Shown: positions 21,227-32,154 of the stretch, piece by piece
Position numbering within the stretch: the first letter of the stretch is position 1
Layout of the letters: the number at the start of each line of letters is the position of its first letter
Assembly (NCBI GenBank): GCA_963727445.1
Contig: CAVSGI010000010.1
Location: 224,001-288,000, forward strand
Length of the DNA stretch: 64,000 bases
Reading direction: 5' to 3'
DNA from: an uncultured delta proteobacterium
GTDB taxonomy: Bacteria; Myxococcota_A; Polyangia; Polyangiales; B10-G4
Position numbers and translations under genes: made by a program
Notes under the pieces: model-generated
Databases searched by the model: none
The model's input: the letters and a program-made list of their open reading frames with translations, nothing else
Told to the model about the DNA's origin: nothing

Positions 21227-21823
21227 TCAAGGGGGCGGTGGAGCGTTCGGGCATGGGGTGAGCGCGAACGTCCCGTCTGGGTGCGGTCGTTGCTCGAAGC
21301 AGCGCGCCGCGCATTGGCCATGCGCGTAGAAGTCGTATTGGAGCAGGTACATCGCGCCGACCCTCGGGTTGAGCGAGAAGCCTACCGAGCAGCGGCCGTC
21401 GACCTCCTGCTCGGTCCGCGTCACGTATCGGGTACGCAGGTGGGTGCGTGTGCAGTAGCGGGTCGTCGTGTAGGTGCTGTTGCCGAAGCCGGAGCGCTGC
21501 GTGCCGCAGGGATAGCGTTCGGTCTCGGTATAGGTCTGGGGAACCCTGCGCGTGATCGTGTGGAAGAAAGTGGAGCCGAGTTGCCACGCGCCGGTCTTCG
21601 GGCGAACCCGAACTGCCGTCGTTCGCGTTGCGCCTCGCGCCTCCGGATAGGGGACCCGGATCTCGTGACCATCGAGGGTGATGCGTTCCGTCATCTGAGG
21701 CCCGGGTTGCGAGTGATAGTTCACCCGCAGCTTCACTACGGCGTGTGGCTCACTGGCGGTGGGCGGGACGTAACGTGGAGGTGCGCATCCGAGGCACGCA
21801 AAGATGATCAACGCCGCGGACAC
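21227..21823 (-). CDS. Hypothetical lipoprotein
   Basis: IIFACLGC lipobox, Thr/Arg-rich beta segment, paired Cys; start inferred. Confidence 0.5.
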   Translation of the reverse strand: MSAALIIFACLGCAPPRYVPPTASEPHAVVKLRVNYHSQPGPQMTERITLDGHEIRVPYPEARGATRTTAVRVRPKTGAWQLGSTFFHTITRRVPQTYTETERYPCGTQRSGFGNSTYTTTRYCTRTHLRTRYVTRTEQEVDGRCSVGFSLNPRVGAMYLLQYDFYAHGQCAARCFEQRPHPDGTFALTPCPNAPPPP

Positions 21824-21946
21824 GTGGCGACACAGGTCGTCGAGCTCGAATCGCACTCGTTGATTCCAACGACTGCTTTGATCGGTGCGTCCACGAGGAG
21901 ATTCTACGCGGACGCGGCGCGAAACGCGCACACTCCGAAGGGGCGG

Positions 21947-23938
21947 CTACACCTGCGCGCGGGCGGCGTCCGTGCGGTCGCCGAAGATGTCTTCGGGGGT
22001 CGCGATGTAGCCCGCGACGGCGCTGGCGACGACGGTGAGGGGGCTCGCCAGGTAGACGTTGCCGGGCCCCGAGCGGCCCGGGAAGTTGCGGTTCTGGGCG
22101 CTGACCGTGACCTGGTTCGGGTCGTCGGACTTGCCAGGCCCCGCGTTGATGCAGGCGCCGCAGCTCGGGTTGATCACCTCGACGCCCACGCGCTGGAAGA
22201 GGTCGATGTAGCCCCTCCTTGGCGGCGTAGTCGCGGATGTGCTGCGAGCCGAACTGGATGTAGCAGCGCACGTCGGGCGCGACGCGCATGCCGCGCTTCT
22301 CCGCCTCGCGGAGCACCGCCGCGTACATGTCCATGTCGCTCTTCTTGCCGCCGGTGCAGCTGCCGCCGTAGGCGATGTCGATCTTCACCTTGTCGCCGAC
22401 GTCAGAGAGCGCGATGCCGTTCCGCGGGTCGCCGGGGGTGGCCACCATCGAGGGGACCTCGGCGAGATCGATGTCGAAGGTCTCGACGTAGCTGGCGTCG
22501 GGATCGCTCTTCACGATGCCCGCGCGGATCTGGTCCTTGGGCGTGCCCCGCATCTCGTGGATGTAGTCGACCACGACCTCGTCGGCTTCGATGATGCCGG
22601 TGAAGCCGCCCGCCTCCACAGCCATGTTGGTCAGGGTGGCCCGCTCGTCGAGGGGCATGCGCGACACGCCCTCGCCCGCGAACTCGAGCACCTTGCCGAT
22701 GCCCTTGGAGGTGCGGAAGAAAGGCTGGCTCAGGATGTAGAGCATCACGTCCTTGGCCGAGACGCCCTGTCGAAGCTCACCGCTCAGCACGAAGCGCACC
22801 GTCTCGGGCACCTTCACGCGGACGTCCTTCGTGTACCAGCTGTTCGCCATGTCGGTGCTGCCGACGCCGAAGGCGAAGCAGCCGAGCACGCCGGCCATGC
22901 AGGTGTGGCTGTCGGTGCCGGCCACCACCATGCCGGGGAGTGCCGAGATCCTCGACCACCGCGTTGTGGCAGATGGCCTCGGAGCCGCCGCCGCTGACCT
23001 CGCCGTAGAGCTTGAGGCCGTGCTTCTTCGAGAAGCTTGCCTGCGTGGTGGCGAGACCGTCGGCGTGCTCGAGGAGGCCCATCTTCCGCTTCGACTCCTC
23101 CATCACGTCGCCGAGATAGGTGAGATGGTCGCGGAAGGTGTAGACGCGTGTCGTGGTCGGTGACCGTCGCCTCCGGGCCGAAGCCCTGGCGGAAGAGCGA
23201 GTCGGCCATGGGCGTCACGTACTCGTGACTGAAGCGAACGTCGGTGCGCACGAAGAGCGCGTCACCCGGCGCCACCGCAGGGACGCCGAGGGCGCCGGTC
23301 TTGGCGTCGCGCACGGCGTGCTTGGCGATGATCTTCTCGACCATCGTCATGGGGCGCGCCGGCGTCTCGATCGGCGGCGGCGAGGTCTCACCCGCCATGC
23401 GGCGCTTGTTGTACTCGAAGAGCCCGCCGGAGCGGACGATCTCCGCGCTGATCGGGTCGAGCCCCTCGGTGAAGGTCGACAGCTCGATCTCCTCGCCGCG
23501 CAAGATGCGCGGGATGAGGGAGAAGTCGGTGGAGGTGAGCAGGCCGATGTTCTGGCAGTTCTGGCCGTAGATCTTCTCGATGCTCTCGGCGATGACCAGC
23601 TCGATGCCGGCCGTCTTCTCGCTGTAGGGCGCGGTCTCGCGGGAGCTGCCGCAGCCCTTGGACTCGCCGCTGACGATGACGCTGAAGCCGCCCTTCTTGA
23701 GGGTGTCCTTTTCGAAGAGACCGCCTCTCAGGCCCACCATCGAGTAACGGCCGAGGGTCTCGTCGTAGTAGAAGCAGACCCAACCCGGCGTGATCTCGTC
23801 GGTGCTGATGGCGTCGATCAGCTTCCGATCGGGATCGAAGGCCAGATCCTCTCCTTCGAGCTGCTTCTTCAGGAGCTCGAGGTCTTCGGTGAGAAAGAGG
23901 ATGCGTCCGTCGAAGTGGATCCGGTCGGGTCTTGCCAT
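21947..23938 (-). CDS. Aconitase-family hydro-lyase, LeuD-like + LeuC-like fusion (frameshifted near 23150, 22945, 22215)
   Basis: ISTDEITP, GCGSSRE, GTDSHT, TLTNMAVEAGG, GGSCTGGK, PSCGACING-like Cys cluster, QNRNFPGRSG, YLASP. Confidence 0.85.
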
Positions 23939-24068
23939 GAAGCGCCTACATTCATTAGAGGCCACGCCGTCCCCCCGCAAGGACTGTTCGAGGATCAGCG
24001 TGAGGAGAGATCTGTGAGGATCCACACTGGGACTGGCAATAGCTGAGAAAGGACTAGAATCCCGGGCG

Positions 24069-25728
<1,660 letters not shown>

Positions 25729-25854
25729 CCCCCCGCGCTCTTGCTCGTTCTCGACGCAAGCCGTCTCGAGCCACCCAACGTCGCGCAGCGCCAGCGCCCG
25801 AACGCACGCGTCGAGAGTGAGCCGCGTCCCCCGAACATCCTCGGCGGGACGAGC

Positions 25855-26495
25855 GCGACATCACGAGAAGGGGCCGCGATGCGGTCGCAAGTCGAGGCGT
25901 TGCGTGCGACGCAGCGAGAAATGACCGCGGTGCGGTCACAAGTCGGGACGTCGCGTGCGACGCAGCGAGAAATGACCGCGGTGCGGTCACAAGTCGGCAC
26001 GTTGCGTGCGACATCGCCAGAAATGACCGCGATGCGGTCACAAGTCGGGACGTCGCGTGCGACATCGCCAGAAATGACCGCGATGCGGTCACAAGTCGGG
26101 ACGTTGCGTGCGACGCAGCGAGAAATGACCGCGATGCGGTCACAAGTCGGGACGTCGCGTGCGACGCAGCGAGAAATGACCGCGATGCGGTCGCAAGTCG
26201 GGACGTCGCGTGCGACGCAGCGAGAAATGACCGCGATGCGGTCACAAGTCGGGACGTTGCGTGCGACGCAGCGAGAAATGACCGCGATGCGGTCACAAGT
26301 CGGGACGTTGCGTGCGACATCGCGAGAAATGACCGCGATGCGGTCGCAAGTCGGGACGTCGCGTGCGACGCAGCGAGAAATGACCGCGATGCGGTCACAA
26401 GTCGGGACGTCGCGTGCGACGCAGCGAGAAATGACCGCGATGCGGTCACAAGTCGGGACGTCGCGTGCGACATCGCCAGAAATGACCGCGATGCG
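25855..26495 (+). repeat. Tandem array A: ~12.5 x 51 bp double-hairpin repeat
   Basis: Consensus GAAATGACCGCGATGCGGTCACAAGTCGGGACGTCGCGTGCGACGCAGCGA; unit starts 25867, 25918 ... 26479 at exact 51-bp spacing. Confidence 0.95.
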
Positions 26496-26508
26496 AGGCG
26501 CCGCACCG

Positions 26509-27306
26509 TCACCATGTCGAGGCGGGCGCCCGAGCCGTGACACTGGCGGCCACGGCCTCCTCGAGCGCGATGCGGATGCGAAGCGCACGCAGCGCTTGAG
26601 GCGAGGCCGAACACGCGGCCAATCGCCGAGCGCTCCGCGGGGAGAGCGAAAGTGACCACGCGATCTCGGCGGTCGCGATTCCCAGCTGCCCCGCGAGCAC
26701 CGCGGCGGTGATCTTCGCTCCCATGACCGGGGCCTCTCTCCCGGAGAGCGGCGGGCCCGCCGCGAAGGCCGAGGACGCTGCCGCGGCGATCCGAGTAGGG
26801 CCCAAGGCGCGAAGCGCGGCGTCATCGAGAAGCGGGATGGACGGCGGCAGCCCCGCCGCTTCCAGCAGCGTCTCCGTCCGCAGGCGCGGCACGAGCTCGC
26901 GCACGCGCGGCGTGACGCCGGGAACGATCCGGGCTCCCACGAGATCCTGAAAGCACGATCCCGTCCAGAGCGCCGGATGGCCCGAGAGGCCGTGATGTTC
27001 GACCTGCCGCACCATGTAGGGGATCAGTCGCTTCAGGTGCTGCCGATCCCGCACCGGTTCGACGTGCGCGAGTCGAACATCGACCTGGGCGACCTTCTTC
27101 CACGCGAGGACCACCGACCGACCGACCCACGGGAAGCTCTCGCCATTGGCGAGCACCACCGTGTGCGCGTGATCATCGACGACGCAGAAGAGCACCACGC
27201 GCGCGCCGCTTCTTCCGAGTGCACGAACCGCCTGGCGCAGCGAGCGCTCATCTGGGAATGGGGGCAGACGACCGGCGGAGGTGAACGTCAGGTGGGCGCA
27301 TCGCAT
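26509..27306 (-). CDS. HUH (Y1) endonuclease/transposase, RAYT/TnpA-like, with C-terminal HTH-like region
   Basis: HLTF...R.PPF N-terminus, FCVVDDHAH (HUH), VRDRQHLKRLIPYMVRQ (candidate catalytic Tyr), GL...P..W.GS, and TAEIAWSLSLSPRSARR. Confidence 0.75.
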   Translation of the reverse strand: MRCAHLTFTSAGRLPPFPDERSLRQAVRALGRSGARVVLFCVVDDHAHTVVLANGESFPWVGRSVVLAWKKVAQVDVRLAHVEPVRDRQHLKRLIPYMVRQVEHHGLSGHPALWTGSCFQDLVGARIVPGVTPRVRELVPRLRTETLLEAAGLPPSIPLLDDAALRALGPTRIAAAASSAFAAGPPLSGREAPVMGAKITAAVLAGQLGIATAEIAWSLSLSPRSARRLAACSASPQALRALRIRIALEEAVAASVTARAPASTW

Positions 27307-27395
27307 GCGGGCCTTATCGACTCGGAGCGGTCGCGGTTGCGCCGGGCGCGAGTGCGGCTCGGTTGCAACTCGGATCCCTGGTGAGCGCGGGCAGA

Positions 27396-28272
27396 CCAGC
27401 GGTCACAACTCGGGTCGTCGGGGTCAACGCCGGCAGAAGTGACCGCCTCGCGGTCACAACTCGGGTCGTTGGCGTCAACGTGGGCAGAAGTGACCGCCCA
27501 GCGGTCACAACTCTCGTCGTCGGGGTCAACGCCGGCAGAAGTGACCGCCCAGCGGTCACAACTCGGGTCGTTGGCGCTAACGCCGGCAGAAGTGACCGCC
27601 CAGCGGTCACAACTCTCGTCGTTGCGGTCAACGCCGGCAGAAGTGACCGCCCAGCGGTCACAACTCGGGTCGTCGGGGTCAACGCCGGCAGAAGTGACCG
27701 CCCAGCGGTCACAACTCGGGTCGTCGGGGTCAACGCCGGCAGAAGTGACCGCCTCGCGGTCACAACTCTCGTCGTCGCGGTCAACGTGGGCAGAAGTGAC
27801 CGCCTCGCGGTCACAACTCGGGTCGTTGGCGCTAACGCCGGCAGAAGTGACCGCCCAGCGGTCACAACTCTCGTCGTTGCGGTCAACGCCGGCGGAAGTG
27901 ACCGCCCAGCGGTCACAACTCTCGTCGTCGGGGTCAACGCCGGCAGAAGTGACCGCCTCGCGGTCACAACTCTCGTCGGGGTCAACGCCGGCAGAAGTGA
28001 CCGCCCAGCGGTCACAACTCGGGTCGTCGGGGTCAACGCCGGCAGAAGTGACCGCCTCGCGGTCACAACTCTCGTCGTTGCGGTCAACGCGGGCAGAAGT
28101 GACCGCCCAGCGGTCACAACTCGGGTCGTTGGCGCTAACGCCGGCAGAAGTGACCGCCCAGCGGCCACAACTCTCGTCGTTGCGGTCAACGCCGGCGGAA
28201 GTGACCGCCCAGCGGTCACAACTCGGGTCGTCGGGGTCAACGCCGGCAGAAGTGACCGCCCAGCGGTCACAC
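27396..28272 (+). repeat. Tandem array B: ~17 x 51 bp double-hairpin repeat (one 48-bp unit)
   Basis: Consensus GAAGTGACCGCCCAGCGGTCACAACTCGGGTCGTCGGGGTCAACGCCGGCA; starts 27436 ... 27946, 27994 ... 28249; degenerate remnant at ~27359-27395. Confidence 0.95.
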
Positions 28273-28298
28273 CTCCGCCCGGTCGCCCTCAGGCCCAT

Positions 28299-28970
28299 TC
28301 ACGGAAACAATCGTGGCCACTCGGATATCAGCGGGGGCGCGTCGCCCTCCCAGGGTTCGTCGCACTGGCGCTCGCGGTACTCGAGCAGCTCGAGGTGGCC
28401 GTCCGTCAGACGATAGCGCCCGAAGCTGCCGCAATCGCCGATCCCGCGGTACTTGATGTGGTCGCGCGCTTCGCCGGTGTCCGGGTCGAACTCGAACCAG
28501 CCGGTGAGCGGACGGGAGGCGCGCTGCCCATCGGGACTGACGTATTCGAGGGTCAGCGCGCGGGCCTGGCCACCGGCCACGGTGAAGACGCGCCCCGCTT
28601 CCTGGTACGCCCCGATCTCGCAGACCATCCAGACGAGCACCGCGCCCTCCACACGATACGTATGCGGCCGGGTCGAAGCGGCGTCGTAGTCCGGGAGCCT
28701 GTCGAAGGGACAGGCTTCGGGGCTCCCGTAGGCCGCCTCGACAGCGTCGGCGTCGAACGGCTCGCCCGCCGCCTCGGCCGCCTCCGCCCAGGCGTCGAGC
28801 GGCAACCCGTCGACGTGCGCGCGACTCGGCGCCGGCTCCTCATCGGCCGAACCGATCTCGTCCATCTCCAGCGTCTCCGCGCGCGGCGGGCGGGCCGCCG
28901 ACATGGCTGGCTCCGCGCTCCCGCAACCCACGAGCAACGAAAGCGCGCACGCTGTGAGCCGAGCGAGCAT
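28299..28970 (-). CDS. DUF1176-like lipoprotein
   Basis: LVGC lipobox; CEIGAYQ and FDPDTG...KYRGIGDCG motifs. Confidence 0.65.
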   Translation of the reverse strand: MLARLTACALSLLVGCGSAEPAMSAARPPRAETLEMDEIGSADEEPAPSRAHVDGLPLDAWAEAAEAAGEPFDADAVEAAYGSPEACPFDRLPDYDAASTRPHTYRVEGAVLVWMVCEIGAYQEAGRVFTVAGGQARALTLEYVSPDGQRASRPLTGWFEFDPDTGEARDHIKYRGIGDCGSFGRYRLTDGHLELLEYRERQCDEPWEGDAPPLISEWPRLFP

Positions 28971-29168
28971 TCGCGGCGACGCTAGTGCCTGGTCCAATGA
29001 TGTGGAAGGGGAGATCGCGACGGGCGTCGGTCACGTCGCAAGGAGGGAAACCGAAGGACGTGCAGCGCACATTCGAGGTTTCCCGACGCCGCGAGGCGGC
29101 CGACGAACGAGCGAGAACCCTTCTACGTCATTGGACCAGGCACCAGCAGTCTCCCTCCGAAACGCTTC

Positions 29169-31142: not shown

Positions 31143-32154
31143 TCAGTCCTTCGCGAGGGCGGCGACGAGATGTGGAAGCGAGTCCTCGTAGCGATAGCTC
31201 GTCCCGCGATGCCCACCCGAAAACTCCTCGAAGTGGACCTTCGCCCCGGCCTCGCGCAACGCGCTTTCGAGCGCGCGAGCGGCGAATTGCGCGCCGTACT
31301 CGTCGACGTCACCGGCGTCGAGATAGACGAGGGAGAGCTGGGCGATCGCGTCCTTCGCGTTCTTCACGCGCACGAGAGGGTCGTGAGCCAGATAGCGCGA
31401 CCAGATCTCCACGAGGGGCTCGCCGGTGTGCAGGTCGAAGGGCAGCGCGGCGTGGGGCAGCGGCGCATCCGGCTCGGGTGCGTACGCAGTGGCCGTCGCG
31501 AGGAAGAAGAGCCCGTCGAAGTCCGGACCGCGCGGGCCTCGTTCGGTGATCTGCGCGCAGAACGCCTCGAGCCCACCGGCGGCGGCGTAGCTGATCGAGG
31601 CCTTGAGGAACATGGGCCTCAGGGTCACCTCGAAGGCGGCGTCCCCTGCGTGGCTTCCCACCACGGCGAAGACCTCCGGGCGATCCATGCCCAGGCGAAG
31701 CGCGCCGAAGCCGCCGGAGGAGCGTCCCACCACGGCGCGGGCCTCGCGCTTCGGGATCGTCCGATAGGCGGCGTCGACGTGCGGGACGATTCTCGTCGGC
31801 CAGATAGGTCTGGTAAGGCCCGGTCGCCGCCGAGTCGACGAACTGGCTCCCGCCCCAGCGGGTGATGGCGTCGGGCATCACGAGGATGGCCTCGTCGCAG
31901 GCGCCCGTCTCGAGGAGCGTCTCGTAGAGCTCGAGGAGATTCGGCTTCCAGATGTCGTAGCCGACGATGGAGCGATGGTTGGCGCCGAAGCCCGGCAGCA
32001 CCATCACGGTGGGATAGCGCTTCGTTCCCTCGTCGTAGCTCGGCGGCAGATAGGTGAGCACCTCGCGGCGCGTGGGGTCACCGAGGATGTTTCCTTCGAG
32101 GAGCTCGCTCTCGATCGTGGTGACGCAGAGCGTGCCGCGAAGCGGCGCCTTCAC
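31143..32154 (-). CDS. Esterase, alpha/beta hydrolase (enterochelin-esterase-like; frameshift near 31790)
   Basis: LLEGNILGDP, YLPPSY, GGSQFVDS, GRSSGGFG nucleophile elbow, DAGDVDEY, FSGGH. Confidence 0.85.

Follow-up and report, generated by a model that had tools for sequence, protein, structure and literature searches.

What can a 265-residue protein do when its gene is enclosed between two arrays of a 51-bp hairpin repeat? The question is raised by a 64,000-nucleotide stretch of DNA from an uncultured delta proteobacterium (contig CAVSGI010000010.1, positions 224,001 to 288,000; hereafter the window). A preliminary description, made from its letters alone, recognized there a HUH/Y1 endonuclease (HUH, histidine-hydrophobic-histidine) and proposed a new REPtron-like system, in analogy with the REP-associated tyrosine transposases (RAYTs) and their repetitive extragenic palindromes (REPs). 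Our analysis indicates that the locus is probably REPtron-like: a single-copy, likely domesticated HUH/Tyr nuclease is predicted to cut and rejoin single-stranded DNA and to seed and lengthen its own 51-bp repeat, every enzymatic step being one that we infer. Since many relatives of the gene adjoin 51-52-base repeats of differing sequence and the repeat of the window is scattered over the chromosome, the enzyme is likely to build and spread its own minisatellites.

The open reading frame (ORF) had been described between about 12.5 and about 17 repeat copies, and it was found between arrays of 12.6 and 17.3 units, 13 bp separating the left array from the stop codon and 89 bp the start codon from the right array. 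Arrays and ORF fill, as described, the gap between two convergent host genes, gpmI (plus strand) and a DUF1176 gene (minus strand), and only 126 bp past the gpmI stop codon and 23 bp ahead of the DUF1176 stop codon are left over. The consensus units of the two arrays are identical at 38 of 51 positions on the same strand versus 30 of 51 on the opposite one, so that both arrays have the same orientation, again as first described. The locus has no space for a tnpB gene, whose absence had also been pointed out, and a search for a sigma-70 promoter gave no match.

A homologue search with the 265-residue protein yielded 41 relatives of 36-50% identity, and residues were aligned for 40 of the 42 hits. 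D44, H46, H48, Q101 and H105 are invariant in the 40 aligned sequences and Y97 is conserved in at least 90% of them; the motif of the window protein is Y-x3-Q-x2-H and the consensus of the alignment Y-x3-Q-x2-HH. The residues H46/H48, Y97, Q101 and H105 align with H59/H61, Y115, N119 and H123 of E. coli RayT, which form its active site according to the available sections of the structure paper (PMC3479197). The AlphaFold model of the protein has a pLDDT of 95.9. Foldseek ranked the TnpA-REP structure 4er8 first with an E-value of only 3.6e-3, and a VIA-align comparison with 48,161 chains gave the same best match for residues 1-152 (Z 11.6, root-mean-square deviation (rmsd) 2.8, 132 aligned residues), followed at ranks 2 and 3 by DnaA domain IV in 3pvp (Z 9.8, rmsd 2.2, 84 aligned residues, positions 168-251) and 1j1v (Z 8.7). 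The model thus shows the HUH/Tyr fold of a TnpA-REP protein (RAYT), extended by a DnaA-domain-IV-like helix-turn-helix (HTH), with all metal-site residues retained. Structure modelling in this way supports the HUH/Y1 identity proposed at the outset, a HUH motif and one catalytic Tyr being present on a TnpA fold as in TnpA-Y1 enzymes. Profile matches of the 40 members are weak: NF047646 was matched by 28 at E≤0.1 (best 2.2e-6), Y1_Tnp by 10 and HTH_23 by 7, and in a neighbouring Atlas cluster PF08299 is found in 48% of members. Contigs of related strains from three metagenomic DNA runs, of low depth and each covering only part of the locus, list 20 differing sites in the ORF, 13 synonymous and 7 non-synonymous. 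As 13 of 20 exceeds the expected synonymous share of 28% (p=7e-4), the reading frame of the nuclease is under selection.

Each 51-bp unit consists of an imperfect inverted repeat of 48 nt and a spacer of 3 nt. The main hairpin, dyad A, has 8-bp arms and a 3-nt loop, this loop being the spacer that closes the stem; dyad B has the form GTY-N6-RAC, and the centres of both dyads are about 25.5 bp apart. Because of this structure the half-units alternate in direction, and the former statement that the repeats are strictly head-to-tail holds for the units and not for their halves. Positions 2-6 and 19-20 hold pairs that are constant across the consensuses of 19 arrays. GTAG is absent from both window arrays and GTGG occurs 0 and 3 times in them; within the whole family of the window, GT[AG]G or CGTC stands at the foot of the stem in only 1 of 314 half-units, in agreement with the earlier remark that GTAG/GTGG is lacking there, and CnGA precedes the stem on its 5' side in 54 of 314.

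The repeat is dispersed in the genome holding the window (G000). Its pattern was found in 157 units forming 19 arrays, versus none in the reversed genome, and 17 of these are orphan arrays away from the gene, for which the preliminary description had proposed a search. Unit likeness reaches 93% inside arrays versus 75% between arrays, indicating that a founder was amplified locally. Solitary dyad-A hairpins are not clearly above background (20 versus 10 and 20 versus 23, genome versus reversed genome). The sole paralog of the gene in this genome (C27:412259-413014, 43% identical to the 265-residue protein) has 11 and 17 copies of a 52-bp unit on its two sides. This second repeat family comprises 119 units in 18 arrays, in which the 48-nt layout recurs and the spacer has 4 nt; its identity with the 51-bp unit is 45%, shuffled units giving 43%. 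A GT[AG]G foot was detected in 1 of its 238 half-units and CnGA in 115. Arrays of about three units, which might represent a minimal element, account for 7 of 19 in the 51-bp family and 6 of 18 in the 52-bp family; several have common flanks, and a length of about 150 bp could also result from short-read collapse. Those sharing flanks (C4:40148/C5:195834; C10:767635/C10:1568476/C13:9074; C12:64935/C12:157947) seem to be copied inside larger units.

Two other arrangements were observed around these arrays. A two-hairpin repeat of about 90 bp lies within 710 bp of a 51- or 52-bp family array at all 14 of its hits in this genome and nowhere else (e.g. C8:480561-480680, C4:22411-23607, C12:178154-179378, C6:535112-535203); it is often inverted on the two sides of an array and may mark larger composite elements. 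Moreover, some 51-bp family arrays adjoin or sit inside 52/53-bp arrays (C13:260781-261161, C17:219642-221802, C12:178291-179150, C8:77948-78878), suggesting that the repeats insert close to one another.

The association of gene and array was then considered in the best 80 of 83 homologous GTDB loci. The taxon titles of many loci of about 70% GC among L003-L080 (Enterobacterales, Rickettsiales, Klebsiella) look unreliable and were not used for the host range. With Tandem Repeats Finder (TRF), a 50-53-bp array was located within 500 bp of the gene at 36 of the 80 loci, versus 1 of 30 other RAYT-family genes of the same phylum, so that the homologues do carry the flanking hairpin arrays on which the first proposal depended. 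In the sister subclade such an array is present, anywhere in the fetched region, at 10 of 20 loci, and a few loci there have other periods, e.g. 73 and 84. Among 138 gene-adjacent flanks, 37 score at lag 51 and 8 at lag 52, each count including four low-complexity flanks that score at every lag; none of 103 flanks taken 2.4 kb away scores at these lags. The mean identity of units between loci, 45%, is near random, the window repeat itself was found in 0 of 40 relatives, and no sequence motif common to the families was found beyond a weak GA[GC]TT / AA[CG]TC bias. Significant dyad symmetry is retained in 39 of 52 units, and arrays on two sides of a gene are co-oriented at 10 of 11 loci (one homopolymer locus dropped). 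In a second genome with long contigs (G041), all five paralogs, one of which has an internal stop, adjoin a 51-bp array, mostly differing in sequence, and one of the families also has orphan arrays, with as many as about 40 units. In a third genome (G005), the unit is dispersed over many contigs. Across the clade the period is fixed at 51-52 bp and the two-dyad layout is kept, while the unit sequence is near random. A length of 51-52 bp corresponds to about five helical turns, and we infer that this number of turns is the reason for the period. As a separate observation, three arrays of one family stand between short gene blocks within 5 kb of G041 (L113:2686-7475), in a cassette-like arrangement.

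The repeat can also be followed at a site with and without an array. In the host genome, two copies of a cassette of small genes carry arrays of exactly 7.0 and 12.0 units, placed at the base of a long hairpin, and two paralogous cassettes without array represent the empty sites, the junction falling at unit positions 7-15. The two filled copies are 99% identical and differ in unit number, 7 versus 12: the cassette arrays are one insertion event followed by copy-number change. This filled/empty comparison is a single case among the 37 arrays of both families. No target-site duplication was noticed, the 3-nt spacer not being repeated on both flanks of three-unit arrays examined by eye. The cassette is present at C6:~405300-406700, C27:~289700-291400, C25:~76000-76950 and C14:~396400-397300, with a 51-bp family array in two copies, and contains genes of small helical proteins, long perfect hairpins and hexamer tracts.

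For the BIMEs (bacterial interspersed mosaic elements) of E. coli, a two-step route of excision with reinsertion and of nick-and-extend has been modelled, as the available text of PMC3333891 presents it. In the system of the window, double-stranded DNA would be bound by the DnaA-like domain at the symmetric conserved motifs, and once the DNA is single-stranded the nuclease would act on the hairpin. Two nicks at equivalent spots n units apart, together with strand transfer, would produce a single-stranded DNA circle to be reinserted elsewhere. A nick, extension by a host polymerase and a second nick would add units in place, and host slippage would bring further change. The period of about five helical turns would be dictated by the geometry of the protein and not by sequence, and specificity would come from the DnaA-like domain instead of GTAG. 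As a possible though doubtful extension of this reading, the whole clade could be a dedicated minisatellite builder, in which the HUH nuclease and its DnaA-like reader measure about five turns and copy 51-52-bp units regardless of their sequence, the private satellite of each paralog being a phased platform for protein loading.

Several results weigh against an enzyme that makes its own arrays. The 265-residue query gave no match in Pfam and NCBIfam, and when profiles were compared with E. coli RayT by itself, the match was weak (E 0.019). Within the 51-bp family, the positions between the constant pairs vary without compensatory change; pairing beyond the 8-bp stem is therefore unsupported, and this pattern would suit a long hairpin no better than sequence-specific sites. 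At 44 of the 80 loci there is no 50-53-bp array within 500 bp, many of these being on short-read contigs and many ending near the gene. Protein and repeat co-diverge weakly (Mantel rho 0.15, p=0.004, n=41, including kin that are not independent). One G041 paralog (L120) also adjoins, as judged by eye, an array resembling the unit of another paralog, so that the pairing is not strictly exclusive. Finally, array ends fall at the dyad-A loop in 23 of 38 cases for the 51-bp family and 26 of 36 for the 52-bp family of the host genome, where arrays with common flanks are not independent, versus 13-18% in a simulated null; in G041 only 2 of 16 ends do so, and the junction of the filled/empty case maps elsewhere in the unit. 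The hairpin loop was consequently rejected as a fixed cut site and no cut site is claimed, because the clustering did not replicate.

In an alternative that we consider unlikely, the enzyme merely seeds or binds the unit and host slippage and recombination build the arrays, the period reflecting selection for phased sites of the DnaA-like domain in a DNA-organising or regulatory platform. Array interiors do contain partial-unit deletions typical of slippage, copy number differs between the nearly identical cassettes, array ends are not fixed across families, and the symmetric conserved motifs show no covariation, as would be the case for protein-binding sites. However, slippage alone cannot account for the 17 other sites or for the filled/empty pair, and both the invariance of the catalytic residues and the solitary hairpins at or near background disagree with a protein restricted to this role.

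It is quite improbable that the gene and its arrays constitute an autonomous IS200-like or rolling-circle transposon with amplified ends. Each repeat family goes with one gene copy (the host genome has a single paralog, 43% identical), the clade lies outside class 1 (SH-aLRT 99), tnpB is missing, and no member was matched among 72,556 plasmids, 50,697 phages and viral contigs, although the motif Y-x3-Q is that of class 1 transposases, the arrays of two sides are mostly co-oriented, and the family is patchily distributed, being present, often as several paralogs, in 43 of the 401 genomes that were sampled in the phylum. A genome of the same genus (86% complete, in 590 contigs) showed no full-length gene of the family and no unit pattern, and a different gene follows its gpmI within about 40 bp. 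An ortholog of the 265-residue gene was not found in close relatives, nor was the DUF1176 neighbour, searched with the window query, in G001, G002 and G005. The least probable explanation, that transcripts of the arrays are processed into small structured RNAs serving as guides or substrates, structured RNAs having been envisaged initially, or that the arrays encode repeat peptides, could draw on a better folding of the units than of their shuffled versions (z -2.67 and -1.85, folded as DNA) and on long open frames through the 51-bp arrays, but it is contradicted by the lack of any Rfam match near threshold and of unique spacers, by conserved motifs equally present on both strands, by 52-bp families that break any reading frame and by codon scores of at most 0.08 inside all 37 arrays of the host genome.

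The nuclease of the window belongs to a clade of its own. A filter-free homologue search returned 887 clusters at E≤0.001 and 490 clusters (50% identity) at E≤1e-10; the nearest Atlas clusters lack names and are mostly from Myxococcota. In core-domain trees from a quick search, the family forms one clade (SH-aLRT 99-100, from the SH-like approximate likelihood-ratio test), separate from 19 class 1 proteins and from 33 of class 2, E. coli RayT and two proteins of the TIRYT type being among the latter. Nine proteins with the motif Y-x3-Q-x2-HH group with class 1, apart from the clade. Only one putative class 3 protein was obtained from 126 loci, and it is placed outside the clade on a long branch.

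How far known systems resemble it was assessed from the available portions of the papers cited. The locus shares with the E. coli REPtron (RayT 4er8, BIME-2; PMC3333891, PMC3479197) the fold and metal site, a single-copy chromosomal gene flanked by cognate palindromes with orphan copies dispersed in the genome (G000, G041 and G005), homogeneous units within a locus and one repeat family per paralog. It differs by the missing GTAG/GTGG foot, by Y-x3-Q where the REPtron has Y-x3-NP, by the extra DnaA-like domain, by repeats that occur only as arrays, singlets and doublets not being above background, and by a period that stays at 51-52 bp over unrelated sequences, the linkers of BIMEs being variable in length. 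The rarity of the GT[AG]G foot in both host families, the invariant Q101 and an NF047646 cut-off that is not reached also separate it from canonical class 2 RAYTs (2.2, 2.4, 2.5, 2.7, 2.8), whose motif is Y-x3-NP (PMC6006769). Subclass 2.1.2 and the TIRYTs (PMC6006769, PMC3733652) resemble it by a HUH core followed by a Bac_DnaA_C/HTH domain, a similar length and a low copy number; unlike the window family, subclass 2.1 is described with Y-x3-NP, GGGG[AT][CG]A[CG] terminal inverted repeats and no REP-like hairpins, and the TIRYT-type gene of the host genome itself falls in class 2, away from the clade. The motif Y-x3-Q-x2-HH is that of subclass 1.2, described without REPs, and Y-x3-Q that of class 3, which is flanked by atypical, genome-dispersed hairpins (PMC6006769). 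In the same source, however, these proteins have only about 148 (1.2) and 178 (class 3) residues and no HTH domain, and class 3 repeats are bulged hairpins of 25-30 nt with a CnGA foot. None of the IS200/IS605 features, i.e. near-identical multiple copies, one hairpin per end, a short protein and often tnpB, was encountered at the window locus. Pseudomonas REPINs (REP doublets; PMC3116915) are similar in that a 48-nt unit is an inverted doublet and ordered tandem clusters adjoin the RAYT gene, but most of them are single doublets and their clusters reach about four at most, versus 3 to 40 units in the arrays of this family.

The family therefore combines a 1.2-like motif, a 2.1.2-like tail and REPtron-like repeats, and fits no tested TnpA-Y1 subclass or REP type. 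In this sense the proposal of a new REPtron-like system is supported. Tandem repeats beside RAYT genes have already been published as BIME-2, tandem REPINs and REP clusters, to judge from the accessible text (PMC3333891, PMC3116915, PMC3733652). REPINs are reported only with RAYT groups 2 and 3 in the available part of bioRxiv 2021.07.10.451892, and GTAG is taken as the mark of REP recognition in that of PMC8266576. A literature search, which left most subscription papers uncovered, retrieved neither a description of the clade nor one of a period fixed at 51-52 bp. The system is a real and apparently undescribed variant of the REPtron/BIME system, and its novelty lies in the C-terminal DnaA-like domain and the conserved period, both of which had escaped the preliminary description, not in tandem arrays beside a RAYT. 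The preliminary description had named in advance three outcomes that would speak against it, a protein without HUH fold, homologues without arrays, and a match with a known RAYT/REP class, and none of them occurred, the last with respect to the subclasses and REP types compared here.

Table 1. Positions of the repeat arrays, the nuclease gene and the bordering host genes in the window.
Feature	Coordinates	Strand	Remarks
Left (downstream) 51-bp array	25855..26495	.	~12.6 copies (12.57 units by profile extension)
265-residue HUH/Y1 nuclease-like gene with C-terminal helix-turn-helix domain	26509..27306	(-)	
TnpA-REP-like catalytic domain, residues 1-152	26851..27306	(-)	H46-x-H48, Y97, Q101, H105
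Predicted DnaA-domain-IV-like helix-turn-helix domain, residues 168-251	26554..26805	(-)	structure match
Right (upstream) array, variant of the 51-bp unit	27396..28275	.	~17.3 copies, orientation as in the left array
Host gpmI (iPGM) gene, frameshift-split in the assembly	24069..25728	(+)	left boundary, outside the element
Host DUF1176 gene	28299..28997	(-)	right boundary, outside the element

The features of the locus are collected in Table 1. TRF alone delimited the left period-51 array at 25874-26495 (12.2 copies, 93% matches) and the right one at 27396-28275 (17.3 copies, 88% matches). Together with gpmI, two other neighbours are split by frameshifts (window 21750-25728 and 31143-32154), probably due to long-read indel errors, and the HUH ORF is intact. 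At window position 25731, right after the gpmI stop codon, contigs of two metagenomes diverge, and their loose ends look like both inverted termini of a further small insert. Elsewhere in the host genome, four other Y1_Tnp genes were noted (C9:567190, C9:168805, C10:985738, C10:487668). One of these four has GGGGACGG-type inverted repeats and is TIRYT-like, such repeats occurring elsewhere in short tandem arrays, and two related ones lie among hexamer tracts. Genome-wide there are many further highly identical tandem arrays whose periods are about 104-130 bp (e.g. C2:91686, C2:186436, C6:79105, C21:569320, C27:265200), 104-105 being 2 x 52.

The copying of REPs and BIMEs and the cellular role of domesticated RAYTs are long-standing open questions, for which this family offers a cleaner test system than E. 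coli, its arrays being young and homogeneous. Two enzyme-repeat pairs of differing sequence in one genome make a swap test possible, and, as the length rule holds across dozens of sequences, a period shifted by a few bases is predicted to block amplification. The DnaA-like domain of subclass-2.1-type proteins, which had no target known so far, gains a candidate binding site, in a family that is sizeable and largely unannotated, with 490 clusters and members in more than a tenth of the genomes sampled (43 of 401).

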